Below are positions 2,486-54,230 of a stretch of 64,000 bases of DNA, one piece after another; the first letter of the stretch is position 1; each line of letters begins with the position of its first letter. The notes below the pieces were generated by a model. It ran no database searches and had not been told where the DNA came from. It saw only the letters and a list, made by a program, of their open reading frames with translations. Source of the stretch: a virus (lineage: Duplodnaviria > Caudoviricetes); the IMG/VR virus record IMGVR_UViG_3300034065_000151, positions 64,001 through 128,000 of that record; one strand, 5' to 3'. Position numbers and translations under genes: made by a program.

Positions 2486-3691
2486 TTAAGAATGAAACAC
2501 TTTGATGATTGCATTTGAGATAGCTGTATGACTTGCATCATTATATTGTTGTAACAACTTCATGTTAATCTGGTGACGACCATGAACAGAATCTTCTAAA
2601 GCCATTTCCATTTTTTCAATGATATCTTCTGGGCTATTTGGATTAGCATGATATCTTTTTGATACCCAGAATATTTCTTCAGATACAACTACTGGAACAC
2701 CTTGAGCTACTGCATCAGCTGATACAATATTAAATGTTTCACTGTAGCTAACTTGTAGGTTAATATCCATAGTTGCTATTAATTCAACGAAGTCATCATG
2801 ATCTAACCATTGGTGTTCTACCAAAGTTGCGATCGGTGAACCTGCAAAAATATTACGAATGTTGTGAAGAATTGGATTACCACCACTTTCAAGACGACTT
2901 GTGTTGATATGGAAATACAAATGTTTTCTATGACCTTCAGCATAACGTAATGCAGCAAAGGCTTGTTGAAGTTGGTTTTTCAATGGGCGGATAGCACCAA
3001 AGCAACCAACATGAATACATGATGGATCAACTTCACGATCTTGCCAAGTTGATTCTACTTCTGTACTATAGTAGTTGGGGAAGTAAACAACCTTATCAGT
3101 TGGAATACCTGTTTGTGATACTAATGCTTTTAAGTCATTAACAGAAGTATGTGTATTAGAAGCAATAAAAACTTTTTCAAATTTTGTATATTTCGGCAAC
3201 CATCCAAGAGCTTGACCTTCTTGGGCTAAGAATGGAATGTTACTATGGTTACGGATAATCCATTTTACATGAGGATGTAGTTTAGTTAATACTTCAAATT
3301 TTTCAGGTACTACCCAGATTGCTTCGATAATAACAATATCAGGTTTGAATTTAAATACTTCTTTGTCGATACAGTTGTTATCAATAACTTGTACAATTTT
3401 TGATTCACATTCATGACCATTGAGACCAAGGTCATTAAGCATATCGCTGACCATTGTTGCAGAATTAAGTAAGCCGGAAGAAAGTCCTGAACCTGCTCCG
3501 CCTGAACTATAGGAGCAATATGGATTATCACGATGTTTTAATATAAACAGTATTTTTTTCATTGAAGTTATGTCTTGTGGTGTGGTTGGTTGGTGAAAAA
3601 GTTTCATAAGGGTATCCTTTAAGTGTTGACCATCGAAATAATGGAATAGGTTTTCAAATACATCCATTATTGTTTGTATAAATTTGTTCAT
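2486..3691 (-). CDS. GT-B (GT4-like) glycosyltransferase
   Basis: VGCFGAIRPLKNQ and SETFNIVSADAVAQGVPVVVS correspond to the GT4 nucleotide-sugar-binding domain. Confidence 0.85.
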   Translation of the reverse strand: MNKFIQTIMDVFENLFHYFDGQHLKDTLMKLFHQPTTPQDITSMKKILFILKHRDNPYCSYSSGGAGSGLSSGLLNSATMVSDMLNDLGLNGHECESKIVQVIDNNCIDKEVFKFKPDIVIIEAIWVVPEKFEVLTKLHPHVKWIIRNHSNIPFLAQEGQALGWLPKYTKFEKVFIASNTHTSVNDLKALVSQTGIPTDKVVYFPNYYSTEVESTWQDREVDPSCIHVGCFGAIRPLKNQLQQAFAALRYAEGHRKHLYFHINTSRLESGGNPILHNIRNIFAGSPIATLVEHQWLDHDDFVELIATMDINLQVSYSETFNIVSADAVAQGVPVVVSEEIFWVSKRYHANPNSPEDIIEKMEMALEDSVHGRHQINMKLLQQYNDASHTAISNAIIKVFHS

Positions 3692-3729
3692 GTAAATCCC
3701 CGAAATTGAATTGCTAGAATTGATACATC

Positions 3730-3737
3730 TATTTATA
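3730..3737 (-). promoter_or_regulatory. T4-type late promoter TATAAATA upstream of the glycosyltransferase
   Basis: Exact T4 late consensus; a gp55 homolog is present in the window. Confidence 0.65.
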
Positions 3738-3742
3738 CAAAT

Positions 3743-3774
3743 AAAAAAGCTTACTAAAAATAGTAAGCTTTTTT
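3743..3774. terminator. Intrinsic terminator (bidirectional)
   Basis: aaaaaagcttacta-aaaa-tagtaagctttttt hairpin. Confidence 0.75.
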
Positions 3775-3794
3775 GGGGGAAGATATTTGAAATA

Positions 3795-4244
3795 TTATTC
3801 TTTTACAAGTAGATGATCTGCATCACCAACACCTCGAAGGGTTTTCTTATTAAACTTTAATACTTTATTACCATCTTTGTGATCAGTGATATGAAGTTGT
3901 GTTGGTGTAACTCTGAGAACATTGAATTTACCATAACTACCAGTATCAGTTCCTTTAGTATGAGTGTGTAATTTAACAACATCACCATCATTATATGAGG
4001 CAGTCATTGAGGTTGCACTTTCTTTTATACCTGCTAATGCAGCATAATACTTTGCATACATAGCTAAATCATTTAAATTGTAATAATCAATATCATTATC
4101 ATTTAAATAAGAAATTACTTCTTGATGATCAATCTTAAAATTAAGGGATTTTAAAAAAGACGCTTTTTCTTCATTAGACAATAAAGAAAACATATTTACT
4201 AATTCTGATGATTTTGACTCATTAAGTAATTGTGAGACTTTCAT
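3795..4244 (-). CDS. Hypothetical protein, probable internal head protein
   Basis: N-terminus MKVSQLLNES resembles a capsid-targeting peptide; internal IKES protease-type site. Confidence 0.6.
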   Translation of the reverse strand: MKVSQLLNESKSSELVNMFSLLSNEEKASFLKSLNFKIDHQEVISYLNDNDIDYYNLNDLAMYAKYYAALAGIKESATSMTASYNDGDVVKLHTHTKGTDTGSYGKFNVLRVTPTQLHITDHKDGNKVLKFNKKTLRGVGDADHLLVKE

Positions 4245-10270: not shown

Positions 10271-11908
10271 TTAGGCTTCTTCCGGAGCTGGTGTTGCTGG
10301 TGCTTTTTCTTCAGGTGAGGCCTCTTCTGGCTCTTCTTCTGCTCCAGCTGCTTCTGGTGGTTCTTCACCACCAGCAGGTCCTACTGTTTCCTTCTTGGTT
10401 TCCACATTTGGATCATAGAACTGACGGATTTCGTCAACTGATAAACCATCTTGGATACCACGTTCTTGTTTCAATAAGGCTTCATTCATCTGGATATCAT
10501 CTTTAGTCAAACCTAAATAACGTTCCATCATGAATCGTTTAGACAAATATGGTGTATCTTCGACAGCTTTAAATGATGCAATAAGTTCAGTATCCAATGC
10601 AGCCTGACGATACAAGGCAAAGTTCTGTGGTTCAGCAAGTGTAAGTTTGAATAGATCAGGATCAATATTGATACCTGTCACTTTAAGATATGCCTTGAAG
10701 TGCTCATCAAAGACTTCCTGGATACATGATTGCAATCTGATAACAAAGTTAGCAAAAATACGTTCTTCCATATATGCCACACCAGTCTTACCATCGTTAT
10801 ATGCAGAACCTGGATTAGTTGCATCCTGTCCTTTCATGTATGATGAAGGAACACGTAAAGCACGGAAAACTTTGTTAAGGAAATAATCTAATTCTGGGAT
10901 TTCCCAGGTAGTACCACCAGGTAAAGTTTCAACACGCGAACTTCTACCTGCTGCAGTTACTGGAAGGAATATATCTTCACCGATCGATTCAGCATTGTAT
11001 TGAGAATCTGTTTGGTTTTGATTAGCAGTGTTTGGCATACGCTTTTGACGCAAGTCGTTACGGATGGTTTCCAAATGCTGTTTAACACGATGTGGTGCCA
11101 TATTACCAACATCGATATAAAATACACGACGTTCTGGGGCACGAACAATACGATAGATAATCGCAGAGTCTTCCAACATGGTTAACTTTTGGTAATCTTT
11201 AAAAGCTGACTGTAATATGGAAAGACCAAATGGTGCAGTATCACTCATATCATCAGATAGAGTAAAGTGTAGCATCGCAATAGCTGGGGTAATTTCAACT
11301 GAATCAGAAGCTGATGCAGTTGCTGAACCTGGTTTCATTGCCTTAACAGAATCCATGAAACTTGATGGACGGATATGGTAAGCAACCTTTTCACCTTGGG
11401 CATTAATTTCAACACCAATTACTCGGGTTGGATCTACATATTCCCATTGTTCAGTATCAGAAGTCTTGCGAAAAAAGCAATCACCATACTTAACCATTTG
11501 ACGGGCAGTATTGTAAACACGTTTGTTAAGTTTGTGGAATCTTGACCAGTGGCGAAGTGCTGCTCTTAAGGTAGTAACAGTGGTATCAGGAATTTCTTGA
11601 TTTTCTTCGGTTTGATAATCAATGATAAATGGTAGGCTTGTACGTTTATCAGGATTTGAAATTTCTTCAGCAATAATATCAAGGGCACGTGAGATATCAC
11701 CAATGTCCATGGCATCATATTGTTTATAGCGTTGAAGACGGGCAGTAGCACCTTTTAATAGATTTGAAAACCAAGCAACAGTAGAGAATGATGAATACCC
11801 TGCTGAGTTGATATTCATACCATCATCCATGTTAATGGTAGGTTGTGAATACGCTGTCTTACGAGATGCTGGAGTTATAATTTTCCAGTAATTTTCCCAT
11901 TGAGCCAT
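10271..11908 (-). CDS. gp20: Portal protein (T4 gp20-like)
   Basis: LEDSAIIYRIVRAPERRVFYIDVGNM, EDIFLP, VETLPGG, ALRVP.S motifs. Confidence 0.97.
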   Translation of the reverse strand: MAQWENYWKIITPASRKTAYSQPTINMDDGMNINSAGYSSFSTVAWFSNLLKGATARLQRYKQYDAMDIGDISRALDIIAEEISNPDKRTSLPFIIDYQTEENQEIPDTTVTTLRAALRHWSRFHKLNKRVYNTARQMVKYGDCFFRKTSDTEQWEYVDPTRVIGVEINAQGEKVAYHIRPSSFMDSVKAMKPGSATASASDSVEITPAIAMLHFTLSDDMSDTAPFGLSILQSAFKDYQKLTMLEDSAIIYRIVRAPERRVFYIDVGNMAPHRVKQHLETIRNDLRQKRMPNTANQNQTDSQYNAESIGEDIFLPVTAAGRSSRVETLPGGTTWEIPELDYFLNKVFRALRVPSSYMKGQDATNPGSAYNDGKTGVAYMEERIFANFVIRLQSCIQEVFDEHFKAYLKVTGINIDPDLFKLTLAEPQNFALYRQAALDTELIASFKAVEDTPYLSKRFMMERYLGLTKDDIQMNEALLKQERGIQDGLSVDEIRQFYDPNVETKKETVGPAGGEEPPEAAGAEEEPEEASPEEKAPATPAPEEA

Positions 11909-11939: not shown

Positions 11940-11968
11940 TATTTATAAAACCCCAGAAGGGGTTTTAT
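11940..11968 (-). promoter_or_regulatory. Terminator hairpin immediately followed by late promoter TATAAATA (11940-11947) for the portal gene
   Basis: aaaacccc-agaa-ggggtttt plus tatttata. Confidence 0.7.
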
Positions 11969-12562: not shown

Positions 12563-12621
12563 TATTACTCCGATAAAGGTATTAAGTTTACTTATTTATA
12601 GTTTTTAAGACTCTTGATCTT

Positions 12622-12876
12622 CTAAAAATCGTTTATATTCACTATTATAAAATGGTTTTTGGCAATAGTTGCTTCACCTTTTGGCCATGGTTTTTTAAGA
12701 ATATCCAATGCATACATGTAAGCATATTCTGGGTCTTTGGCAAGGGCATCTTCACGCTTCTTTAATTCTTTTGGGTCATGACTATATTTGTTCCAAACAA
12801 TATCCGGTACAACTTCATCAGCTTGTTTATGACCATGAATTAAATGGGGATTTTTATGAAACTGATATAGATTCAT
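12622..12876 (-). CDS. Helical-repeat family protein (MNLY-type, 1 repeat)
   Basis: Clear paralog of the 38.1-42.4 kb array. Confidence 0.75.
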   Translation of the reverse strand: MNLYQFHKNPHLIHGHKQADEVVPDIVWNKYSHDPKELKKREDALAKDPEYAYMYALDILKKPWPKGEATIAKNHFIIVNINDF

Positions 12877-15722: not shown

Positions 15723-15749
15723 TATAAATATAAGCATAATATATTTATT
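15723..15749. promoter_or_regulatory. Pair of opposed late promoters (TATAAATA + at 15723-15730; AATAAATA - at 15742-15749)
   Basis: Located between the divergent tape-measure and gp26 genes. Confidence 0.65.
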
Positions 15750-16858: not shown

Positions 16859-16889
16859 AAAAAAGGACCTTCAATAGGTCCTTTTTTTT
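16859..16889. terminator. Bidirectional terminator between convergent genes
   Basis: aaaaaaggacct-tcaat-aggtcctttttttt. Confidence 0.85.
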
Positions 16890-18170: not shown

Positions 18171-18656
18171 TTAGTCGTTAGGTTGAAAGGCTGCTAAGTA
18201 GTCAGTTAATGTAATGACTAATTCATCATAAGAATGAACTACAGGAATATCATATCTATGACAGACAATATCCACATTACCTTTACAATAAAATCCATGA
18301 GGACAACATACAATGACATTATCCCAATCCCGATTTGCTGATAGTCCCAACTCCATAAGAGTTATAGGAGATTTGGTATTAGGATCAAAATAGAATACGG
18401 TTATTTGAGCAGATTCCAATCCATTTAATTCCCAAGTAACTTGTTCATTAAATTGTGGATTTTCAAATTCTTGTACCCATGAGGCATCCCAATCAGTACG
18501 TCTTGGATTCAAAAAGAGAACAGAAAAGTCTCTAAAATCATTTACAAGACGTTCTTGCCATGGTTCAGCTAGCCCCATCTCAATTGATCCTGTCAAAAAT
18601 ACTTTTGGCAAGTGGGGATATACATTGATATTGTTTGGGGCTTTGACTTCAATCAT
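18171..18656 (-). CDS. Nucleoside 2-deoxyribosyltransferase-like protein
   Basis: VFLTGSI...WQ, LNPRR..W, QV.WEL, SPITLMELG, KGNVDIVC. Confidence 0.85.
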   Translation of the reverse strand: MIEVKAPNNINVYPHLPKVFLTGSIEMGLAEPWQERLVNDFRDFSVLFLNPRRTDWDASWVQEFENPQFNEQVTWELNGLESAQITVFYFDPNTKSPITLMELGLSANRDWDNVIVCCPHGFYCKGNVDIVCHRYDIPVVHSYDELVITLTDYLAAFQPND

Positions 18657-18919
18657 TATGCATGACCAAGAACAGCTTCAATACCATCACGCTTCATACG
18701 ACGGTATACAGCTTTAGGACATTTTGGATCAAGAGTGACCGAATTGTGAATTTCAATTTGTGGCTGCATTTCTTTATGACCTTTGGCAGTTTTACCTTCT
18801 TTCATAACAGTCACTTTATGCTGGACATAACCGTAACGGGTATAAGCACCTTCAAGCACACCAGTTTTAACTAATTGGCGAACGATAATACGTAATGCTT
18901 TGGCTTTCTTTTGATTCAT
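18656..18919 (-). CDS. Hypothetical basic protein
   Basis: ORF track; coupled overlaps on both sides. Confidence 0.6.
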   Translation of the reverse strand: MNQKKAKALRIIVRQLVKTGVLEGAYTRYGYVQHKVTVMKEGKTAKGHKEMQPQIEIHNSVTLDPKCPKAVYRRMKRDGIEAVLGHA

Positions 18920-19092
18920 TTTATTTCCTTGGTTGAATTGAGAACTTCTACAAAATTGATTGCTGCTTGTTTTACATCTTCTTCATATGCTCGTTGGGAT
19001 TTTACTGCTGGAACCAAATCACTAACAATTTCCTGAATTTTTTCTTCAGGCAAATTACCAACATCCACATAAAAAATTCTTCGATTACTCAT
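18916..19092 (-). CDS. 58-aa protein beginning with a portal clip-domain motif
   Basis: Below the ORF-track cutoff. MSNRRIFYVDVGNLPEEKIQEIV...; AAGGA RBS; ATGA overlap with the next gene. Confidence 0.75.
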   Translation of the reverse strand: MSNRRIFYVDVGNLPEEKIQEIVSDLVPAVKSQRAYEEDVKQAAINFVEVLNSTKEIK

Positions 19093-19101
19093 CTTATTTC
19101 C

Positions 19102-19398
19102 TTAATAATTTAAAATACTATTGGTATTAAAGTACATATTATACAACTCAACTAATACATCACCATGACAAGCATCAGGTTTACACCAACAGCCTAATGT
19201 TAAACCTTTTAATTCTGGTAGAGAATTAAATAATTCAGGAGTATCTAAAATATATTGTCTATACTTTTCGATAACTTCTTTACGAGTTCCATGAACTCCT
19301 ATTATAAATGGATTTCCCCATTTACTTGGTCTCGTAATTATAAAATCGTAGTTGTCCCTTTTGCAGTGGACAACATTAATCTTCTTGTTTTTCTTCAT
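19102..19398 (-). CDS. DUF4326-like protein
   Basis: VVHCK...RPSKWGNPF...LGCWCKP.ACHGDVL. Confidence 0.85.
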   Translation of the reverse strand: MKKNKKINVVHCKRDNYDFIITRPSKWGNPFIIGVHGTRKEVIEKYRQYILDTPELFNSLPELKGLTLGCWCKPDACHGDVLVELYNMYFNTNSILNY

Positions 19399-19801
19399 GT
19401 TTTAAATGGGCACGGTCAATAGCTTCAGCCGCCGCTTGAGGTACATCATTTGGAATCTCTACATAAGCACCAAGTACATATGCACGACCACCTTCAGCCC
19501 ACTCGGGATTTACAATTTGTTTAGGTCCACCCAACCACGAGAATGCATGTGCATTCATGTTGTTATTTGTGGTGACAAACCAATTAATATCACCGAGGTC
19601 ATCACGACCTCGTTTGATAGTTTTTAGAATTTGATATGCTTCTTTTGAAACACCAAGATGTTTTCCCGTATTCATAATAACTTGACCAATACGAGTAGGA
19701 CCATCAAGTGAAGTTGCTACTTCATTTTCAATTGATTTTGTTGCTATTAGGTCTATAATTAAAGAACCTTTATAAGCAGTAATAGTTGCATGAATTGTCA
19801 T
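19376..19801 (-). CDS. Hypothetical protein
   Basis: ORF track; fits the operon. Confidence 0.6.
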   Translation of the reverse strand: MTIHATITAYKGSLIIDLIATKSIENEVATSLDGPTRIGQVIMNTGKHLGVSKEAYQILKTIKRGRDDLGDINWFVTTNNNMNAHAFSWLGGPKQIVNPEWAEGGRAYVLGAYVEIPNDVPQAAAEAIDRAHLKHEEKQED

Positions 19802-21361: not shown

Positions 21362-21404
21362 ATTTTATAGGGAGTAGTTAAAAAGGAATTACCTTTTATT
21401 TATA

Positions 21405-21749
21405 CTATTCCGGGTCCCATACTTTAAACCATGATGTTAAGGGCTTAGTATGATATAAAACAGTTCGTGAAAGGATGACCAATCTGAGTTGACATTTGCC
21501 CTTTTTGACCTCAAATGTCTTATGACAAACATATTTCTGTTTAACTTTAAATGGGAAATTGATGCAAATATACCAACCATTAAGGAATTCTGATTTATAC
21601 TTATCTAACTGGATATTGTCACCATACACAATAAATGCATCTTTACTGAAAGGTTTTCCTTCTAGTCTATCTTGTTCTAATATTAATTTCATGGGTTGGA
21701 TAAGGTATAGATACACAAGTTTCTGGCCTGTGTAAGTCGGGTTAAACAT
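21405..21749 (-). CDS. Hypothetical protein (likely start MKLILEQ at 21692)
   Basis: ORF track; ATGA overlap with the upstream gene. Confidence 0.5.
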   Translation of the reverse strand: MFNPTYTGQKLVYLYLIQPMKLILEQDRLEGKPFSKDAFIVYGDNIQLDKYKSEFLNGWYICINFPFKVKQKYVCHKTFEVKKGKCQLRLVILSRTVLYHTKPLTSWFKVWDPE

Positions 21750-21949
21750 TCAAATAATATGCCAGGAGTAACTAAATTGCCACTAGTCATATGACAAAGC
21801 TGTAAAATAGATGATTCAATTTCATTAATTGTTTTCTGATCAGGAATCACCGCTTTAAAATGAGTCTCAATAAAATATATTGGATCATGTATTAAACTAG
21901 CTTGTTGAGATAGGGTTAACTTTGGTGGTGGTATATTATTGTATGTCAT
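21689..21949 (-). CDS. Small protein resembling the N-terminus of T4-like large terminase
   Basis: LT.SQ.....DPIYFIETHFKAVIPD vs the recalled TerL pattern FT.EQ..E..KC..DPIYFIENY.KI..PD. Confidence 0.6.
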   Translation of the reverse strand: MTYNNIPPPKLTLSQQASLIHDPIYFIETHFKAVIPDQKTINEIESSILQLCHMTSGNLVTPGILFECLTRLTQARNLCIYTLSNP

Positions 21950-22347
21950 TCAGCATCATCTTCCGGGATAACATTAACACCAAGCAAATTGATATCAGTA
22001 ATTTCTTTTGTACCATTATCTCGCATGTGTACATTACCTGTAGAATAAGAGCGATAAGAAACTGGAACATGACCATTTATTAAGGTTTCTAATATATGTC
22101 CCTGATGTGTATCAGCAACTTTAATTGTACCAATCATGTTACCTCCTTCTAGTTTCAAATCAGAAACAGTAAAGGCTACATCTTTTTGATCTATAGTACA
22201 ACCAATTGAACAACCAATAATTCCAGGCAATGGCTGGTTCTTAGCCTTCCATTCATCAATCGCTTTTTGTAAAGCTTCTGATGAGTAACAATTGCCATTC
22301 CGTGTTGGTACATCAGCTTTTAATATATCAACCTTAAATTCTTCCAT
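21946..22347 (-). CDS. Degenerate prohead-protease paralog (catalytic motifs eroded)
   Basis: Aligns along its length with 9511-10125: NGNCYS/NKRKYP, PGIIGC/PGELNH, IDQKDVAF/VDLKNVSH, DTHQGHILETLI/NTPSGLIVQQLI, SYRSYSTGNV/GVSSRGTGNV. Confidence 0.75.
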   Translation of the reverse strand: MEEFKVDILKADVPTRNGNCYSSEALQKAIDEWKAKNQPLPGIIGCSIGCTIDQKDVAFTVSDLKLEGGNMIGTIKVADTHQGHILETLINGHVPVSYRSYSTGNVHMRDNGTKEITDINLLGVNVIPEDDAE

Positions 22348-22348
22348 C

Positions 22349-24319
22349 TCAGTCTCCTAAAATTCGGGAAAAGCCCGATTCCTTTCTAACTACGACCGTT
22401 TTATCAAATCGGCCGACAGCCTCAGGACGATGTGAAATAATCCACATACTCAAATTATCTTCCCGAGTCTTACCCTTCAACAACTTAAATATGTTATTAA
22501 CACCTAATGAATCCAAACCACCATCAATCTCATCAACAAACAAACAGTTCACATGAGAATGTAAATGATGCAATACATCCCTAAATGATAATGACAATGA
22601 AAGATTAACACGTTTCTTTTCACCACTGGAAAGGTTACCGAAATCCAATTCACGACCATACTGTACCACAGTACAGCTCATATCATCATCAAACTTAATA
22701 ACATGAGGTAAACCCAATTCTCTGGTGTAATAAAATAAACGCTTATTCAAGAATGGAATTGTACGGCTAATAATTGTACGACGGATAAATGAATTCTTAT
22801 CAGTTAACAGTTTCAATAGGAATTGCTGATGTTCTATCAGTTTCTTCAATCTATCAAGTTCTGTATAATCAACTATATTTATAGGACTTTTCAACAGTTC
22901 TTCATGGGCTTCAATATGAGGATTAACAAGAACTGGTTGGTTTTTAAGCTGTTCAAGCACCTCAATATATGGATTAACTGGAATAGGCTGATTTTTAAGT
23001 TGTTCAAATACCTCAGTATATGGATTACTTGAATCCTTTAACTCTTTTATTTTGTTTTCAGCAATAACAGCATTAGATTCAGCTTTAAGAACTTCTTCAA
23101 GACTGCCAAATTTCATTACTTCTAATGCTGATTTCTTATCATTCAATAATGTTGCTAGTTCTGCATTTCTAATATTAATTTCATGAATCCATGTATTAAC
23201 ACTTGTTTCTTTATCATGAATAGATTCTTTTAATCCACTTATTTTCTTAGCAGCACCTTCAAATTTCTGTAAACAGTATGGACACTTTTCATCTACTAAA
23301 TGCGATAATTCTTTAGTCAGTTTTTTAATATCTGTTTCTAAAATCAAATTATCTTTTTTTAATCCATTAATCTCATTAGTGAGTCTGGTTTCTTCTGTTT
23401 TAATTCCATTAACTAATACATGAAGTTCCTTTTCTACTTCACTATCAAATGTGGAAATTAAATCATAATCTTTTTGCAATTTAACAAGTTGGGATTGTTT
23501 TTCAGTATCCCATTTGGTGATACGATCTTCTGCTTCCTTAAGCTGTTTAACCGTTTGTTTTTCTGTATCAGTATCCCATTTTTCAATACGATCTTTTGCT
23601 TCTTGAAGCTGATTAGCATATTGATTTACTGTATCATTATCCCATTTAGTAACACGCTCCTCGGCATTTTTAACTTGCTTCTGGAATAAAGCTGATTGAG
23701 ATTCCTGCTCTTTGATAACAGCTTCTTGAATAGCCGCATTACTTTCAGTTGCTTTGATAATAGCTTTCAACTTGATTGCCTTCTCAGACAACAAAGTGAT
23801 ATTAAACAATTCTTCAATCTGTGCACGTTGTTGAGCAACTGGCATCAACAAGAATGGGGTTGAGTCACCGGAGAATACAATGATCTTAGTAAACAGTTCA
23901 TAACTGATACCAATAACTTCAAGGATTAACTTATTGGTTTCTGCAGCACTTGCACAAGTAATATCTTCACCATTCTTAGTGAATGTGATTTCAGTTGATT
24001 CACCACGACTGCGATATATCTCATATGTGTCAATACCCTTATCAAAGAATAAGCGTACTTCCAACATGGTTTTCTTCAGATTATTGGTTGCATTAATCAA
24101 TCGCTGAAGCGATATCTGGCTTAATGGTTTATCATAAACCGCATAGACCAATGTATTAAGAATGGTGGTTTTACCGGAACCATTAGCACCATCATTATCA
24201 AGATTCTCGCCTTGAAGATGGGTAGTACCAGGATCACTTAAATCGATGACTGTGGTTTGATTACCAAAGGATAATACATTGCGGATATGTAGTTCTTTAA
24301 AACGAATTGGAATACTCAT
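22349..24319 (-). CDS. gp46: Rad50/SbcC-like recombination ATPase (T4 gp46-like)
   Basis: Walker A NGSGKTT, CPYC zinc hook, LSSGEK signature, LFVDE Walker B, ISH. Confidence 0.95.
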   Translation of the reverse strand: MSIPIRFKELHIRNVLSFGNQTTVIDLSDPGTTHLQGENLDNDGANGSGKTTILNTLVYAVYDKPLSQISLQRLINATNNLKKTMLEVRLFFDKGIDTYEIYRSRGESTEITFTKNGEDITCASAAETNKLILEVIGISYELFTKIIVFSGDSTPFLLMPVAQQRAQIEELFNITLLSEKAIKLKAIIKATESNAAIQEAVIKEQESQSALFQKQVKNAEERVTKWDNDTVNQYANQLQEAKDRIEKWDTDTEKQTVKQLKEAEDRITKWDTEKQSQLVKLQKDYDLISTFDSEVEKELHVLVNGIKTEETRLTNEINGLKKDNLILETDIKKLTKELSHLVDEKCPYCLQKFEGAAKKISGLKESIHDKETSVNTWIHEINIRNAELATLLNDKKSALEVMKFGSLEEVLKAESNAVIAENKIKELKDSSNPYTEVFEQLKNQPIPVNPYIEVLEQLKNQPVLVNPHIEAHEELLKSPINIVDYTELDRLKKLIEHQQFLLKLLTDKNSFIRRTIISRTIPFLNKRLFYYTRELGLPHVIKFDDDMSCTVVQYGRELDFGNLSSGEKKRVNLSLSLSFRDVLHHLHSHVNCLFVDEIDGGLDSLGVNNIFKLLKGKTREDNLSMWIISHRPEAVGRFDKTVVVRKESGFSRILGD

Positions 24320-24810
24320 AGGAAATAGATTAACTTTGCATTAGTACGGCTGAAATTTATACAGGGAATGAGTGTTTCACGCATCTCATCAAAGGCTTGT
24401 GGACTGAATTGTTTTGAAATAATAAGGTGGTCAACTGTTTTACCACGACCACCATGGGGACGGCTTATTAGAAAAATACGATTACCATTTTCAAATTCAA
24501 TTACATCCTTAGTAAATCTTTTAATTGGGATTCGATATAATTCGGGAATGCTATAAAAAATATCCCTTAACTGATATAAGATATAATCTTTTAAATTGGC
24601 ATTAGAAGAAGGAGTGGCAATGATAACATTTTTATTACTTTGATATAAACAAACCCATAAAGTAAACAACAAAACATCATCAACATCAGCACCATCTATC
24701 AGCTTATCTTCAAAGGTATTACTAAGATCCCTTCCACCATACATAGTTGAAAAGACTTCAAACTTTGTATGACTTTGTAGTTCAATAATTTGTTGTAAAG
24801 TATAGGTCAT
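24316..24810 (-). CDS. Degenerate large-terminase ATPase-like domain
   Basis: LW..LY..NKNVIIA...L..I...IP....IEFENGNRI....GRGKTVDHLII...LIPCI follows TerL ATPase order; Walker A and the Walker B DE are absent. Confidence 0.7.
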   Translation of the reverse strand: MTYTLQQIIELQSHTKFEVFSTMYGGRDLSNTFEDKLIDGADVDDVLLFTLWVCLYQSNKNVIIATPSSNANLKDYILYQLRDIFYSIPELYRIPIKRFTKDVIEFENGNRIFLISRPHGGRGKTVDHLIISKQFSPQAFDEMRETLIPCINFSRTNAKLIYFL

Positions 24811-25178
24811 GTGAAATATATTGCCCTTCCATTTTTTGGATCCATTGTTAACAAAAGCAATGCCAACTGATTCTTGTATCGTTCTAACTCATCAATAATA
24901 CCCATTGAACAAGCAATCACATTATGCTTTACATTAGCAAATGAATGCATGGTATTGATACCAACAAAACTGAAATTGCATTTGTTGTATAACTCGATAT
25001 TAGCAATTGGATGTGGGTTGTATTGAAAGGGAATACTATTCATGGTTGTTAAGATACCAGATAGTTCAACCGCTTTATCATAAGCAACTATACCCTCTTT
25101 ATAGATGACAAGATACTTTTCATCTGGACTGTTTTGACCAATCCGAATCATTTTATCAAAGAGATAGATTTCTTTCAT
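24807..25178 (-). CDS. Hypothetical protein, probably a second, more divergent terminase-ATPase-like paralog
   Basis: PDEKYLVI...SIP...IELYNKCNF...HNVIAC...AIYFT parallels 24316-24810 (...LIYFL). Confidence 0.45.
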   Translation of the reverse strand: MKEIYLFDKMIRIGQNSPDEKYLVIYKEGIVAYDKAVELSGILTTMNSIPFQYNPHPIANIELYNKCNFSFVGINTMHSFANVKHNVIACSMGIIDELERYKNQLALLLLTMDPKNGRAIYFT

Positions 25179-38112: not shown

Positions 38113-38459
38113 TGAACCTATATCAATTCCATACAATACCTGAGTCACTCCATAAACATGCAGTTGCTCAGGAAACTGTACCTGAACTCGTCTGGAAGAA
38201 ATATAAAAATGATCCCGAAGAACTAAAGAAATATGAAAACGTTCTCGCTAAATCCCCACAATATGCCTGCCAATATGCTATTGATATTCTCGGTAAAGCT
38301 TTCCCTAAAGGTGAACCTGCTATCATGAAAGATGCCTGGTATGCAGCCTGGTATGCCATGGATATTAAAGATAAACGATGGAAAGCCGCCGAACCAACCA
38401 TCTTCGACGACGAAGAAGCTGCTAAAGACTATATCCGCTACTTTGGAATCAATCGATGA
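38112..38459 (+). CDS. Helical-repeat family protein (2 repeats)
   Basis: MNLYQFH head plus ~25-aa YA..YA..IL...FP.GE.AI repeats. Confidence 0.8.
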   Translation: MNLYQFHTIPESLHKHAVAQETVPELVWKKYKNDPEELKKYENVLAKSPQYACQYAIDILGKAFPKGEPAIMKDAWYAAWYAMDIKDKRWKAAEPTIFDDEEAAKDYIRYFGINR

Positions 38460-38983
38460 ACCTCTACCAATTCCACGATCACCCTGAATCTATCCATAGC
38501 CACGATAAAGCAGATACTCATGTAGTAGATGTCTTCTGGAACAAATATAAAAATAACCCTAAAGAACTAAAAACTAGAAAACATGCTATTACTAAATCTT
38601 CTAAATACTCTTTCTATTATGCCAGCGATATACTAAAAGGTAGATTCCCATTAGGTGAACCCGCCATCGCCACTGATCCCTATCAAGCTAAAGACTATGC
38701 CACCACAATACTTAAAGGTAGATTCAAACTAGCCGAACCCACTATCGCTAAAAATAGCTATGCTTCTTATATCTATGCACTAAAGGTTCTCAAAGGTCCA
38801 TTCAAATTAGGTGAACCTGCCATTCTTAAAGACCCAGAAGATGCATTACTATATGCTAAAAACGTTCTAAAGAAACCATGGCCTAAAGCTGAACCCATCA
38901 TTGCATCCAATATCTGGACAACCATAGAATATAATACATCCTTTAATCAACACCTAGCATATACACGTACCTATAAAATATAA
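38456..38983 (+). CDS. Helical-repeat family protein (4 repeats)
   Basis: Same head and repeat unit. Confidence 0.8.
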   Translation: MNLYQFHDHPESIHSHDKADTHVVDVFWNKYKNNPKELKTRKHAITKSSKYSFYYASDILKGRFPLGEPAIATDPYQAKDYATTILKGRFKLAEPTIAKNSYASYIYALKVLKGPFKLGEPAILKDPEDALLYAKNVLKKPWPKAEPIIASNIWTTIEYNTSFNQHLAYTRTYKI

Positions 38984-39090
38984 ACTACTCATGGATAAAA
39001 CTATTTTAAGTAATTGAGTGTTAACCAATAGTAATTTGTAGTAGGTTTTAGAAAAGTTAGTTTGTCCCTTTGAATCGAACGGAATCGAGA

Positions 39091-39546
39091 ATGAATCTTT
39101 ACCAGCTCCACTCAGCACCAACCAGCATATATGGACATGACAAAGCGCATGAGACAGTACCTGAACTTATCTGGAAGAAGTATGAAGGTAACCCTGACCA
39201 AGATGAGCAGCTCAAGAGGTATGAGGACATCCTTGCAAAGGATCCTGGGTATGCTTACAAGTATGCATTCCTGATTCTTAAGAAACCCTTTCCTAAGGGT
39301 GAGAAGGCGATTGCAACCAGTCCTGAATATGCTTTTAACTATGCTCTACATGTCCTTAAAGGACCATTTAAAGCAGGAGAACCAGCTATATCCAAGGATG
39401 CTTATTATGCAGTATGGTATGCTGTGGACGTCTTAAAGAAGCGGTTTCCTATGGCAGAAGACTTGATATATGATGATTATGACCTAGCCATTGAGTACAA
39501 TAGTATGTTACATAAGCATGATATAAAGATCCCACATCGACCATAA
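39091..39546 (+). CDS. Helical-repeat family protein (3 repeats)
   Basis: Start re-set to MNLYQLH. Confidence 0.8.
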   Translation: MNLYQLHSAPTSIYGHDKAHETVPELIWKKYEGNPDQDEQLKRYEDILAKDPGYAYKYAFLILKKPFPKGEKAIATSPEYAFNYALHVLKGPFKAGEPAISKDAYYAVWYAVDVLKKRFPMAEDLIYDDYDLAIEYNSMLHKHDIKIPHRP

Positions 39547-39653
39547 GTAAACCTTTTATTATATCACATGATAAGTAATAAGTGTAGTAAGTGTAGTAAA
39601 TATAGGAACTGTTGGATGATAATATCCTAAGTGAAACCTTCTATTATAACATA
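39547..39653 (-). promoter_or_regulatory. Two orphan leftward extended -10 promoter-like motifs flanking a short TAAGTGTAG tandem repeat; candidate origin element
   Basis: Minus strand TGTGATATAATAAAAGGTTTAC (39547-39568) and TATGTTATAATAGAAGGTTTCAC (39631-39653); third copy at 41722-41743. Confidence 0.5.
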
Positions 39654-39670
39654 AAAATTGGAACTGATGT

Positions 39671-40039
39671 ATGAAAGTTGCAGAATTATTTGAGGCCCGG
39701 ATTAAGTATAAGCGTCCAGATTTCCAGGAAGAATGGAATGAGGCGCAACGTTATCCTGAACTTAAGAAGCTTGGTAAACAAGGATGGATTAAGTTAGTTA
39801 ATGATGGACAGATTGTTAATAGTAAGACCTTATTAAATATAGGTAATATTGATTTAGATTTATCTGGTTTGGATAAGGCGAAGTTAGCCAGAGCTGAAGC
39901 GAGTATTAATAAGGGTGAGGTAGAGTTACCTATAGTGGTTAAGATTAATGGTAAGTATGATTTGCTTGGTGGTAATACCCGCTTTGCATATATGAAATCA
40001 AAGGGTATCAATCCTATAGTATGGTTAATTAAGATATGA
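39671..40039 (+). CDS. ParB/Srx-like domain protein with capsid-targeting-like N-terminus
   Basis: LPIVV....YDLLGGNTR motif; MKVAELFEAR start. Confidence 0.7.
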   Translation: MKVAELFEARIKYKRPDFQEEWNEAQRYPELKKLGKQGWIKLVNDGQIVNSKTLLNIGNIDLDLSGLDKAKLARAEASINKGEVELPIVVKINGKYDLLGGNTRFAYMKSKGINPIVWLIKI

Positions 40040-40527
40040 ATTTATATAAGCTACATGACAAACCTGAGAGTATCCATGGACATGATAAGATGGATACCCA
40101 TGTCATCGATGCATTCTGGGATAAGTACAAAGATAATCCTGCTGAATTAAAGAAGCGTGAGAAAGCAATTGCTAAACATACAGAGTATGCACATCATTAT
40201 GCCAATATATTAAAGGGACCATTCCCAGCTGGAGAAGATGCTATTGCTAAAGATGCATTTAGTTCTTTATATTATGCTGGGAGTATATTGAAGGGACGGT
40301 TTCCTAAGGGAGAGAAGGAAATAGCAAAGTATCCAGGATATGCTTATAGGTATGCTGAGTATGTATTGAAAGGGCCTTTCAAATTAGGTGAGGATGCGAT
40401 ATCAAAGAATCCTGAGTATGCTTTTAAGTATGCTTATTATATATTAAAGAAGAAATGGTCTAAAGGAGAGGATGCGATTAATAAGGATCCATACTTTAAG
40501 GAAAGATATGCAAGGGAATTTAAATGA
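40036..40527 (+). CDS. Helical-repeat family protein (4 repeats)
   Basis: Same head and repeat unit. Confidence 0.8.
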   Translation: MNLYKLHDKPESIHGHDKMDTHVIDAFWDKYKDNPAELKKREKAIAKHTEYAHHYANILKGPFPAGEDAIAKDAFSSLYYAGSILKGRFPKGEKEIAKYPGYAYRYAEYVLKGPFKLGEDAISKNPEYAFKYAYYILKKKWSKGEDAINKDPYFKERYAREFK

Positions 40528-41099
40528 ATCTATATGATATGCATCATGATCCTAAGAGTATCCATAAACATGATGAAGCCGATATGACAATACCTAAAGT
40601 GTTTTGGGATAGGTATAATCATATGCCATCTGAATTAGAGAAACGTGAAGCAGCCCTCGCAAAGAGTCCTGAGTATGCTTACTATTATGCCAGGGAAGTA
40701 TTAGATAAACGTTTCCCTAAAGGAGAAGCTGCCATTGCGACAAGTCCTAAGTATGCATATTATGCGTATTATGTGATAGATGGAAGGTTTCCTGTGGGAG
40801 AACCTGCTATAGCAAAGGATATAAAATACAGTGTGAATTATGCTATCCATGTAATACATGAGGAGTTTCCATTAGGGGAAGATATTATAGCGACTGATGT
40901 AGAGTATTCATATGAGTATGCATATGGATTGGGTAAAGTATTTAAGAAGGGTGAAGCTAAGATAGCAACAAATGCCGAGTATAGTTGTCTTTATGCTCTG
41001 TGGGTATTAGGAAAGAGATTCCCATTAGGAGAACCTGTGATAGCCAAAGATCTTCATTATAAACATGAATACAATAAACAGTTTGGAACTAACCTATGA
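40524..41099 (+). CDS. Helical-repeat family protein (5 repeats)
   Basis: Same head and repeat unit. Confidence 0.8.
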   Translation: MNLYDMHHDPKSIHKHDEADMTIPKVFWDRYNHMPSELEKREAALAKSPEYAYYYAREVLDKRFPKGEAAIATSPKYAYYAYYVIDGRFPVGEPAIAKDIKYSVNYAIHVIHEEFPLGEDIIATDVEYSYEYAYGLGKVFKKGEAKIATNAEYSCLYALWVLGKRFPLGEPVIAKDLHYKHEYNKQFGTNL

Positions 41100-41719
41100 A
41101 CTTTTATAAACTACATGATGAACCGGAAAGCATTCATAAGTACCAGGAAGCTTTAGATAAAGTAGTAGATGTATTCTGGCATAAATATAAAAATGATCCT
41201 GTTAAATTAAAAGAACGGGAACCAGAGATTGCTAAATCGGCAAAGTATAGTTATGCATATGCCTTTGGGGTATTACATAAAAGGTTTCCTGCAGGGGAAG
41301 CAGCTATATCTAAAGTACCACAGACAGCATATAATTATGCCAAGAATATAATACAGGGACCATGGCCAGAAGGAGAAGATGCCATTGGTAAAGAATCATA
41401 CTTTGCTTACTATTATGTAGAAGAATACCTTAGGAAGAAGTTCCCTAAGGGAGAAGCTGCGATCGCAAAGGATCCATATTATGCTGCTGAGTATGCAAGG
41501 ATAACAGGACAACCTTTTAAGGCAGGTGAGAAGGCAATTGCTACTAACAATTATGCATCGTATATCTATGCGAGGGATGTATTGAAGAAGCCATGGAAGC
41601 CTGGAGAGGCAGCTATCTTGAATGATAAGGATGGTACCGAATACAGTGAGAACTATATGAAGTTTTGTAATGAATGGTATGCTAACCAGAAGAAAAACAA
41701 AGGATCTAAAGATGAATGA
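41096..41719 (+). CDS. Helical-repeat family protein (5 repeats)
   Basis: Same head and repeat unit. Confidence 0.8.
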   Translation: MNFYKLHDEPESIHKYQEALDKVVDVFWHKYKNDPVKLKEREPEIAKSAKYSYAYAFGVLHKRFPAGEAAISKVPQTAYNYAKNIIQGPWPEGEDAIGKESYFAYYYVEEYLRKKFPKGEAAIAKDPYYAAEYARITGQPFKAGEKAIATNNYASYIYARDVLKKPWKPGEAAILNDKDGTEYSENYMKFCNEWYANQKKNKGSKDE

Positions 41720-41969
41720 AAGTAAACCTATTATTATAACACATTGTGCAGATGATGTATATGATAAATTTTGGCGTAAGCAGAAACCAAACACCAGGGT
41801 ATGTATTGATTCCTATGAGAATGAGATAGCAAAGATACCAGGACATGCTTGTGCTTATGCTAAGTATGTATTGGGTGGAAGGTTTCATAAGGGAGAGAAT
41901 GCTATCTATAGTGATTTGCATACTTCTGCTATCTATATACATTTCTTGGAGTCCTTGAATGATCAGTAA
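41712..41969 (+). CDS. Divergent helical-repeat family protein (1 repeat, head replaced)
   Basis: YAKYVLGGRFHKGENAI repeat; the MNLY head is missing. Confidence 0.55.
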   Translation: MNESKPIIITHCADDVYDKFWRKQKPNTRVCIDSYENEIAKIPGHACAYAKYVLGGRFHKGENAIYSDLHTSAIYIHFLESLNDQ

Positions 41970-51078: not shown

Positions 51079-54000
51079 TAATGCAACATCAGGTTTATAT
51101 CTTGACAGTTTGGTCAGTTATATAAATGATGTTAAACCTTATCGTACTAAGATAGCTACAGGAACCGGTGCCGTCACAGAGAGTTATTTATTTTCTGATG
51201 TGATGAATGTAGCTATTTCAGAGTCTGATAAGATGACTGTTTTCTTAGGGGCGGATATTATGCCATCAGCCGCCACCTTGATAACACGAGCTCGTAGATC
51301 GCAGTCTTGGTATCAGGATATTGTATCGGATGGTCAGCGTAATGTATGGCCAGTACCTTTATTATCAGTACCAAAGTTTGCAAGTCAGGCCAGTTTACAG
51401 AATTTCGTATATGGTGATCACAATGAGTATACAGGAATTCCTGGATTAACTCATGGTGTGTTTAATGATAAGCGTTGGGATGGTCCTGGTATTTCTGATG
51501 TTCAAAAGAATGGTGTCCATCAACAGGATACTATTGGATATACATTAAGTCATGGTGTCTTTACCTTTGATATATTAACAACTGATCAAGGGGTACCTGG
51601 AAGATATTGGAAGCAGTCTGATTTAGAGAATATCACCGGAACATTTGCCCATACTTTCAACAACAATCCTGGTCAACTTATCTATGATAATGTGTATCAG
51701 AGCATTGGTAATATTATTAATATTACAGGAACTACTTATGAGGAGTGGACATTAACTTGTACTAATGAGAGTCCATTCCAAGTTAGTGTGGTTGGTAATA
51801 TTTCAGGTAATATTGGAACAGCAACCTTTGAAACACCATTTGTGAGTGCTGAGATATCTTTTACATGGGTACCTGCATTCCCTGCTGATACCAGTACAGA
51901 TATTATTCTTGGTCAGAAGTTTATATTGACACCAAGTGCGACAGTTACAATTAGTCCAACAGCACCAGTAGAAACCTGGTCATTAATAAAAAGTAATCCT
52001 ATTGCATTAACAAGTGCACCAGTGTTTACATCTTCAGTGATTCGTGATACGCCAGCATTAGAAGTACACACTCGCAATATTGATTCAAATGGTATAGCAG
52101 TAACTTGGACATTAGTATTCCAAGGAAATGGCACCTATAATCTTAACAGATCAACTGCAAGTCCGAATGGTATTAGTTATCCAATTAATGTAGATCTTCA
52201 GAATGGTTGTTCTTTTAAGAATGCTGATATAGCATTTACTATATTGACTACAACAACCCCATTCATATTGAATGATACATTTACATGGGTATGTAACGCA
52301 TGTCCAGCGCATTATAAAGTATTTGGTAGTGTATCAGGATGGCAACCAGATGCGACTATTGGTAAGTGGTATTGGAATGGTTTGATTGGATTTAAGATTC
52401 CAGCATTAACATATTTTGCACAGTCACCTGCAATTAATCAGGCATCAACTGGTAATCCGCCTGATTGGATAGCTGGCCCTGCTCCATTATTTGTAGCATT
52501 GAAAAATGTACGTTCAATAGCAGAGCCTTCTGTTTATACGATAACCTTTACATCACCAACAAATGCAACAGTCCAGAATAATATCTATGGATGGTGTGCG
52601 GGTTTAATTACGAATACACCATGGTATGATGAGTTTAGTTCATTCCAGATTAACACAGTACCGGGATTGTCTGAGTATGTTGCTGGAGATATAGTACAGG
52701 TTTATTTGGCACCATCCCAGAGTATGTCAGTTCAGTTAGCTGGATATGATTCAACTGGTTATGATAGTGCAGGATATGATGCAGATGCAACTGATCAATT
52801 AATAGCAGCTGGATATAATCAAGAAAAATTCCCATTGTATCATGGTTATGGAGCTGTGATATTCCCTAATGCAGCAACTGGTGATCAGTATATTATTGAC
52901 AAGACATTCTATGATAGGATGCAGTTTAAGCTAGTTGGTTCTTCATTGAATCATCCTGAGTTAGCTGCTGTGAATGATTGGGTGCCGTTAGAGTTTAGGT
53001 ATTTTGACCGTGTAGATACAGTTACTGGATTGCCAACATCACCATCAGACTTTTCTGATTTAACAACATATGTACAGGCATATAGTGCAGCGAATCCTAA
53101 TCAGTTAATTTTTAGTATTGCATTACCACGTTATGAGAAGACTAATAGAAATGCCTCTGCGATATTAACTATTGACAGTACATTTTTTGCTACATATCTT
53201 GGAGTGAGTAACAGGTATTCATTTGAGTTTTTACCTGATCAGAGTTATGGTCAGACTATTAGAGTTAAGATTACAGAGAACATTAAGATATATGAGATAG
53301 CGCGTTTGGATTTTGCTGAAGGTCCGGCTAATAATTACTACTTATATCAATACAATTGGAATACAGGATTGTATAGTTTGGTGCATAAAACCACCCCTGC
53401 TTTACCGTATCCATTTAACATTAATATTATTGAAGATGCAAGTAATCCGTTTCAATTTTATGATGTGAAAATTTGGTATACTGATCTTATAAATACAACC
53501 ATTGCTGAGGGTGGGTCATTACCATTCTTGCGACCTGGATATGGAATAGTCCCTTATGGAACACTTCCGTATCAGGATATTACCCCTAATGGTATTTTAC
53601 CTGAAATGACAGGAACACCACCATTTAGTCTTGGGAACAAGCCGGTTTATACTGGTAATCCTAATGATTGGATAATGGTAAGTCCTACAACTTTCCCGAG
53701 TATTGCGGTATTTGACAATCCCCCGCCTGATGTAGCATCTTCTCAGATAACTGAGGGATTGACTATTATGGAGACCATTTTAGCGAGTGATTTGGGTTAT
53801 GACGATATGCCATATGATACTGATTTTTATGATTCAAGTCCAACCGATATTTGGAGTAACAGGTTGAGTGTATTAATGGATGCTACACAGTATCCAATTA
53901 ACAATCAATCACCCCCAAATGGTGGATTATTGATTAGTATAGTTGCTGGAGAGTATTTAGTTAACTGGACAGGTGCGCAATTTACTGGTACCCCAACGGT

Positions 54001-54169: not shown

Positions 54170-54230
54170 AAATACCTTTAAACTATAAATAAATGAGTGC
54201 TATAGCACTATAAATTAAAATGGAGATACA

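Follow-up and report, generated by a model that had tools for sequence, protein, structure and literature searches.

The DNA analysed here, referred to as the window, is a 64,000-nucleotide stretch of a 140.8-kb IMG/VR virus record that is about 40% complete, has 36% G+C, and derives from a jumbo phage with a T4-type portal. Positions are numbered within the window unless the record is named. On the minus strand, between a gene for a DUF4326 protein and an ORF for an 87-residue protein, lies a short ORF that corresponds to part of a portal gene (Table 1). An initial annotation had placed a 58-residue peptide at this site, and translation of the minus strand yields exactly the 58 residues quoted there. 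The two translation signals it ascribed to the ORF are also present. Specifically, the ATG is preceded by its own ribosome-binding site, in which the core AAGGA forms part of a AAGGAAATAA motif as in the next gene, and the stop codon overlaps the next start codon as ATGA, an arrangement that is retained in an ortholog described below. A ribosome-binding core as good as this one precedes 1.3% of random ATGs in the genome.

Codon usage likewise indicates a coding sequence. The codon log-odds score of the mini-portal ORF is +26.0 in frame, versus -39 and -51 off frame. The in-frame value equals the median for 56-codon pieces taken from the long genes of the phage, and no off-frame piece reaches it. 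Because of the ribosome-binding site, the codon usage, the ATGA coupling and the existence of a syntenic 58-residue ortholog, we regard the ORF as a real gene: it is an intact, translated, stand-alone accessory gene, whose start codon is positioned three codons ahead of the clip motif.

Table 1. Features of the mini-portal locus and of the resident portal gene (window coordinates)
Feature	Position	Strand	Remarks
Full-length portal gene of the phage, 545 aa	10271..11908	-	Pfam Portal_T4, E 2.7e-83
Bidirectional terminator hairpin	16859..16887	.	Ends the minus-strand gene run
Downstream 87-aa ORF	18656..18919	-	Conserved in Ralstonia phage RsoM2USA, directly after the orf202 homolog
58-aa mini-portal (putative clip-mimic) CDS	18916..19092	-	Stop included
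ATGA stop/start overlap	18916..18919	-	Shared with the downstream 87-aa ORF (translational coupling)
Codons 33-58, tail	18919..18996	-	Alone without significant portal similarity; predicted helix continuation
Codons 9-32, hypervariable segment	18997..19068	-	Site of ortholog differences; approximately gp20 288-311
Codons 4-15, RRIFYVDVGNLP	19048..19083	-	Corresponds to T4 gp20 282-293 (first clip strand and tip turn)
Shine-Dalgarno core AAGGA	19099..19103	-	6 nt 5' of the ATG; shares bases with the DUF4326 stop codon TAA
Upstream DUF4326 gene	19102..19398	-	Inserted together with the mini-portal ORF
T4-type late-promoter motif TATAAATA	21397..21404	-	35 nt 5' of the PDDEXK gene; conserved in L001

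The relationship of the peptide to portals is evident in several independent searches. The Pfam profile Portal_T4 (PF07230) matches with 26.1 bits, above its curated gathering cut-off of 22.9 (E = 4.5e-6), and aligns residues 3-38 to profile positions 205-240 of 433; in the entire record, only the portal gene and this ORF match the profile. The PHROG portal family phrog_213 also matches (E = 2e-7). When 2.3 Gb of GenBank phage DNA was searched by tblastn, the peptide matched portals of the KVP40 type (E = 3e-4, 46% identity over residues 4-42), with at least 80% of the peptide covered in one phage record and two matching places present in seven records. A hidden Markov model built from portal clip segments only assigns 42.6 bits to the peptide and 35.7 bits to its ortholog, and the best of 20,000 shuffled sequences reaches 10.5 bits. 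The portal match therefore withstands the shuffled control that the initial annotation had called for. Most of the signal resides in residues 3-15, and the sequence from residue 16 onward scores 2.6-2.9 bits by itself (p ~0.01).

Judged by these profile matches, the peptide is a homologous fragment of the PF07230 Portal_T4 family. A weak match to phrog_12349, a family of unassigned function with 97 positions, aligns peptide residues 2-34 to profile positions 57-89 (23.3 bits, E = 1.2e-4) and may link the peptide to a wider family. The phage's own portal also matches phrog_12349 weakly (13 bits), and does so at the same profile positions.

The aligned residues 3-38 correspond to residues 281-316 of T4 gp20, such that residue i of the peptide equals gp20 residue 278+i. 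This places the fragment within the gp20 clip domain, in agreement with the earlier proposal that the segment belongs to the portal clip, where terminase docks. The clip domain of T4 gp20 (residues 279-358) is formed by three β-strands and helix α6, and its tip residues N291, M292, R295 and K296 contact the large terminase subunit (TerL) gp17. Mutation of these residues abolishes packaging, as exemplified by R295A-K296A (PMC4493910). In addition, a synthetic peptide representing gp20 residues 288-311 is cited as binding gp17 and inhibiting T4 packaging (Lin, Rao and Black, 1999, as cited in PMC4493910). The clip sheet combines one strand of one subunit with two strands of the adjacent subunit, and contributes to assembly of the portal ring.

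The peptide shares the first clip strand, the tip and helix α6 with the gp20-type clip (PF07230; PDB 3JA7, 6UZC). The invariant clip residues R4, R5, F7, Y8, D10, V11 and G12 are all retained in both the peptide and its ortholog, and L14, P15, K18 and Y36 are retained in the peptide as well. Unlike gp20-type portals, however, the peptide is the product of a separate 58-codon gene and includes neither the later clip strands nor a stem, wing or crown. Past approximately residue 38 it continues as a tail that has no significant portal similarity and is predicted to be helical. Since nothing beyond first strand, tip and helix can be aligned, the fragment is a partial clip rather than the full set of three strands and α6. 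Similarly, its 58 residues, coverage of about 36 of 433 profile positions, and predicted composition of a coil segment and a single helix do not describe a functional portal.

Within this partial clip, residues 10-33 cover the equivalent of gp20 288-311, the published TerL-binding stretch. The mini-portal peptide thus presents, as a free peptide, the same region as the synthetic T4 peptide, but it is natural, gene-encoded and longer, and its tip is more acidic. Of the residues equivalent to TerL contacts, N13, L14 and K18 are retained, and the equivalent of R295 is Glu (Asp in the ortholog). Position 16 is Glu in the peptide and Ala in the ortholog, and is occupied by Lys in 26 of 27 aligned T4-like portals. 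Glu/Ala16 and Glu/Asp17 stand where the gp20-type tip is basic. AlphaFold2 predicts an extended segment for residues 1-15 and one helix for residues 16-56/57, with no hairpin, and gives the same outcome whether or not the alignment includes clip homologs (pLDDT 69 and 75). In the predicted models, the first strand and tip lead into an elongated helix, and the hairpin that comes next in real portals is missing.

The initial annotation compared the peptide with a segment of the window's own portal, and that segment is indeed present (RRVFYIDVGNMAPHRVKQHLETI, with the clip motif at 11102..11131). The resident portal is nearest to that of Ralstonia phage RsoM2USA (48%) and to those of XacN1 and the PA5oct group. 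The peptide scores best against other portals. BLOSUM62 sums taken over 36 aligned residues are 94-95 for the portals of KVP40 and many T4-like phages in IMG/VR, 74 for Aeromonas phage AS-zj, 70 for T4, 62 for RsoM2USA, and 55 for the phage's own portal. Over 23 helix residues, the sum is 30-31 for the KVP40 and IMG/VR T4-like portals versus 3 for the own portal.

The strand and tip residues RRIFYVDVGNLP are identical at 12 of 12 positions in the IMG/VR T4-like portals, a set that was selected with a pattern requiring IFY[VM]DVG and is hence biased for this comparison. The corresponding values are 11/12 for KVP40, 8/12 for T4 (RRVWYVDTGNMP) and 8/12 for the own portal. The earlier claim that the motif lies nearer to a T4-family consensus than to the phage's own portal is therefore upheld by the substitution scores for KVP40 and T4-like portals, but the consensus given in its support was off by one residue, and over these 12 positions T4 itself is no closer than the own portal. 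These scores are consistent with a foreign target or a foreign origin of the mini-portal. Because it is nearer to T4-like portals than to the own portal, the ORF did not, on this evidence, arise by recent duplication of the portal gene of this phage. The best nucleotide match between the two is only 21/24 nt, which also led us to reject a role for the ORF as a donor cassette for portal gene conversion.

Searches for stand-alone copies, which the initial annotation had suggested, were made among 5.8 billion proteins (near-length and longer) and 1.84 billion representatives. They revealed a single relative, P0002, with 58 residues and 78% identity, which is carried by six ENA contigs and proves to be a syntenic ortholog in a related metagenomic phage. 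A second candidate from the representative search, P0003 (2332 residues), is a repeat-protein artefact that scores 10.8 bits per repeat. Further scans for stand-alone copies found 80 loci in IMG/VR, all of them full-length portals, and none in JGI metagenomes. Similarly, the C-terminal half has no tblastn matches among GenBank phages, the pattern M-x-x-RR[IVM]FY-x-D-x-G has no matches in IMG/VR and eight chance matches in metagenomes, and an ESM Atlas search with the peptide returned no usable match.

On the 101-kb contig that carries the ortholog (L001), the gene order matches that of the window, with the DUF4326 gene, the 58-residue ORF, the 87-residue ORF, a deoxyribosyltransferase-like gene and a 426-residue ORF in succession, and DNA identity in this region between the two phages is 86.5%. 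In both lineages, the DUF4326 gene and the mini-portal ORF are in one frame and are separated by TAA and three codons (19093..19104, minus strand). Read-through of this stop would yield a fusion of about 160 residues, and a search for a fused homolog did not find one. In RsoM2USA, homologs of the 202-residue and 87-residue ORFs abut, and the DUF4326 gene, the mini-portal ORF, and ORFs of 71 and 141 residues are absent. The mini-portal gene thus lies within a lineage-specific insertion. The 141-residue ORF (19376..19801, minus strand), which is upstream of the DUF4326 gene, is also absent from the ortholog contig, where it corresponds to an alignment gap of about 400 nt; the island therefore varies even among close relatives.

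The gene run that contains the mini-portal ORF is headed by a PDDEXK gene and comprises nine tightly packed genes that extend to a strong terminator. The late-promoter motif TATAAATA occurs 18 times in the record, and 11 of these copies are located at most 80 nt 5' of ORFs of at least 150 residues, versus 0.56 expected. Copies precede the genes for the portal, the tail tube and the baseplate. This distribution suggests that the phage uses T4-type late transcription. Since the motif also heads its gene run, the mini-portal ORF is probably made late, along with the portal. Other copies in the window are at 11940..11947 and 12593..12600 on the minus strand, and at 15723..15730 and 54184..54191 on the plus strand. 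A scan for sigma-70 promoters was uninformative, with fewer sites than in shuffled sequence.

The mini-portal gene is patchy, being absent from the syntenic site of RsoM2USA and present in two lineages, and it evolves rapidly. The peptide and its ortholog differ by 22% in amino acid sequence, versus 1-2% for the N-terminal piece of TerL and for the portal. Codons 9-32 hold 20 of the 21 nucleotide differences and all 13 amino acid differences, a clustering of nucleotide changes that has a probability of 2e-7 if changes are evenly spread. This hypervariable segment, which nearly coincides with the equivalent of the TerL-binding peptide, has dN 0.38 and dS 0.24, and codons 33-58 contain one synonymous change.

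Omega for the whole ORF is 1.05, versus 0.02-0.41 for the neighbouring genes, and replacements are as numerous as expected under neutrality. With two lineages only, an omega near one is inseparable from relaxed constraint or from an imported patch of recombined sequence. The replacements are conservative, with a mean BLOSUM62 score of +0.77 versus -0.59 +/- 0.47 in simulated mutations (P = 0.002). Stops arise in 45% of the simulated mutation sets; the frame is open in both lineages, free of indels, and the amphipathic moment of the helix is kept in the peptide and the ortholog. The near-identity of the flanks of the variable segment at the DNA level may reflect just recent shared ancestry. Two other sources of this pattern were considered and rejected. 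A diversity-generating retroelement is ruled out, given that the differences have no adenine specificity. An RNA element behind the invariant 3' half is likewise discounted, since this half has no Rfam match and folds more weakly than shuffled sequence (z = +1.8).

The presumptive partners of the clip within the phage itself have not changed in parallel. The N-terminal TerL pieces of the two phages differ at 4 of 294 positions, none of them near the portal-contact region, and of the 11 positions at which the two portals differ, none falls in the clip. Because the contact region of the own TerL and the clip of the own portal are unchanged, variation in the peptide does not track the motor or portal of the phage, and we infer that it tracks something external.

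What, then, might a phage gain from a gene for the beginning of a portal clip? The product would be a free-standing first part of a T4-type clip, composed of an unpaired strand (RRIFYVDVG), a turn at the tip (NLP) and, up to the C-terminus, an amphipathic helix. In a real portal, this segment meets the neighbouring subunit through its strand, TerL and the neck through its tip and helix, and host sensors. Missing the two later clip strands along with stem, wing and crown, the peptide cannot build a portal. It could, however, occupy a surface that is normally bound by the portal clip. Competitive mimicry of this general kind is a fairly probable mode of action, which, like the identity of the target, is inferred.

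The leading interpretation, which we favor only tentatively, is that the mini-portal serves as a decoy or blocker of a host immune sensor directed at the portal clip, either of the Avs4/Avs11 type or of the SpbK type, and that it would be made late, as is the real portal. A sensor decoy is favored because the gene is accessory, because its changes resemble an arms race with an external partner, and because partial copies of other commonly sensed proteins are encoded alongside. Portals are recognized by Avs4 and Avs11, and capsid proteins by other Avs families. In the SPβ portal, the clip helix is where the TIR defence protein SpbK docks, and A291P, a mutation in this helix, allows partial escape (PMC12847820). 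A decoy for a sensor that reads the helix sequence is disfavored because the peptide helix is so unlike that of the own portal, as indicated by the sum of 3 over 23 residues noted above. The initial annotation had stated that Avs4 contacts the clip. Indeed, the clip is among the contacts of EcAvs4, which reach the stem, clip and wing of the portal monomer (PMC12847820), but this interface is far larger than a 58-residue piece. An Avs4 decoy is accordingly disfavored because the stem and wing that Avs4 also contacts are absent from the peptide.

A precedent for the sensor reading is DSAD1 of phage SPβ, which inhibits the sensor DSR2, itself responsive to the tail tube protein. Both cases would share the logic of a phage protein directed against an immune sensor that is triggered by a virion protein. 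The likeness to DSAD1 is one of proposed logic; the mini-portal peptide, for its part, shows sequence homology to the portal clip.

Ranked nearly as likely as the sensor decoy, and thus possible if still on the unlikely side, is interference with competing T4-like phages. The peptide might bind their TerL at its docking site or cap their portal subunits, thereby blocking packaging or assembly of the portal ring, and the diverged clip of the phage itself would be spared. In the capping variant, the peptide would donate a first clip strand to the hairpin of a neighbouring subunit and offer none in return. The single strand without a predicted hairpin and the sharing of the clip sheet between subunits, which contributes to ring assembly, agree with such a scheme, although the assignment of this strand as the first strand of the clip is deduced from topology. 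The inhibition of T4 packaging attributed to the synthetic gp20 288-311 peptide, in the citing source, favors the TerL variant, but the acidic tip, with Glu/Ala16 and Glu/Asp at the R295 equivalent, may weaken canonical TerL docking. An action on competitors explains the consensus-like sequence well, since strand and tip agree at 12/12 positions with many T4-like portals and at 8/12 with the own portal, and it fits the lack of co-variation with the own TerL and portal. The dead-looking TerL-ATPase and protease copies described below would also fit a set of poison subunits. Conversely, the own portal strand differs just conservatively from the peptide, which creates a risk of self-poisoning if both are made late. 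Gpi, a small protein of the Vibrio cholerae satellite PLE, provides an analogue in that this product of a competing element binds phage TerL and blocks packaging. Gpi is satellite-encoded, and the abstract that reports it makes no mention of likeness to a portal, whereas the mini-portal gene belongs to a phage and has a portal as its source.

The ORF could also be a functionless or near-neutral relic, a piece of portal sequence from a foreign T4-like source that was captured by recombination, stayed open by chance, and is transcribed through its operon only. An omega of 1.05 with a neutral number of replacements, a tiny family of two lineages with no members in IMG/VR, JGI metagenomes or GenBank phages, and conserved flanks that are conserved at synonymous sites too are what such a relic would exhibit. 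However, the start is precise, the ribosome-binding site is good, the stop overlaps the next start, and codon usage is typical of resident genes. Likewise, the conservative replacements, the absence of stops and indels, the preserved amphipathicity, and the retention of all invariant clip residues in both lineages speak against neutrality, and we consider a relic improbable. The least probable of the four readings is that the peptide regulates or chaperones head assembly or packaging in the phage itself, for instance by keeping its TerL or portal monomers inactive before proheads become available. The clip is the docking site for TerL and the neck, the ORF is probably co-transcribed late with structural genes, and its gene run includes a PDDEXK nuclease and adjoins gp46/47-like genes, all of which would suit a regulatory role. 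Yet RsoM2USA, the nearest cultured relative, lacks the gene and has its two neighbours side by side, and the peptide resembles foreign clips more than its own. Moreover, 13 of 24 residues in the contact segment have changed while the own TerL contact region and portal clip have not.

In the literature searched, we found no published description that combines a portal, its clip domain and a decoy. Published work comes closest with the synthetic gp20 peptide, DSAD1 acting on DSR2, and PLE Gpi acting on TerL. The portal clip is the docking point of the packaging motor and the neck, forms a joint between subunits, and is the target of at least two kinds of bacterial immune sensors, and the peptide changes fast exactly where the clip meets its partners. 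If the sensor or competitor reading is correct, then a soluble, gene-encoded copy of the clip would be a simple and unpublished route by which a phage interferes with immunity or with rival phages. A peptide that binds TerL or a portal sensor would also constitute a ready-made probe or inhibitor for those proteins. Its small size of 58 residues, together with the precedent of the synthetic T4 peptide, makes mimicry easily testable.

The mini-portal is not the sole partial copy of a head or packaging gene in this genome, and leads to the others came in part from a comparison of small with large ORFs across the record. A 70-residue ORF outside the window (record 3641..3853, minus strand) matches Pfam Gp23 over its first 35 residues with 37.6 bits, above the cut-off of 24.4 (E = 2.3e-9). 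It shares 44% identity over 36 residues with residues 341-375 of the own capsid protein, and is nearer to foreign capsids (64% for Vibrio phage 2.275.O and 56% for the PA5oct group); a pattern scan of IMG/VR found no relatives. A 133-residue ORF (21946..22347, minus strand) is a partial paralog of the prohead protease (25% over 89 residues, pairwise E = 2e-9), which scores 25.4 bits against Pfam Peptidase_S77, just below the 27-bit cut-off, and matches phrog_207 (E = 5e-11). This ORF is conserved in the ortholog contig and absent from the syntenic site of RsoM2USA. Finally, a 164-residue ORF between gp47-like and gp46-like genes (24316..24810, minus strand) aligns with the TerL ATPase from just after Walker A onward (27% over 110 residues, pairwise E = 1e-11) and does not retain the Asp-Glu of Walker B. 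Two further candidates were not accepted. A 123-residue ORF (24807..25178) was rejected as a second TerL ATPase because it does not align with the N-terminal TerL piece, and an 86-residue ORF (21689..21949) is unsupported as a TerL N-terminus, as it has no Pfam match.

It is conceivable, if somewhat unlikely, that the mini-portal acts in concert with other partial or dead versions of proteins for head assembly and packaging. Such a set would number at least four members, namely the portal clip, the capsid fragment, the protease-like ORF, and the TerL-ATPase-like ORF without Walker B. If such a set exists, it would blunt pattern-recognition immunity against the conserved core proteome of phages, or poison the assembly line of T4-like competitors. 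It would then represent a general strategy of jumbo phages that has so far not been described.

The TerL of this phage is itself unusual in being encoded in two pieces, both outside the window (L012:2894-5869, which is record 38894..41869, minus strand). The N-terminal piece, with 294 residues, comprises the equivalent of gp17 118-345 and a 36-residue N-terminal half of an intein that begins at Cys259. The C-terminal piece, with 381 residues, starts with the other intein half, which matches the engineered atypical split intein CatC (6dsl_B, E = 7.9e-10), and continues with the nuclease domain. A 222-residue endonuclease-like ORF (DUF7487/REase_MTES_1575) sits between the two, and N-terminal TerL pieces of about 290 residues are common to many relatives. 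Adjoining TerL, and also outside the window, a 184-residue ORF (L012:6285-6836, minus strand) scores 28.5 bits against the ART-PolyVal ADP-ribosyltransferase profile, whose cut-off is 31.2. The record also holds a paralog family of proteins with 160-200 residues, together with shorter versions, that share 45-55% identity and are encoded at 38456..41719 (plus strand), at 12622..12876 (minus strand), and at record 50699..51570 (minus strand).
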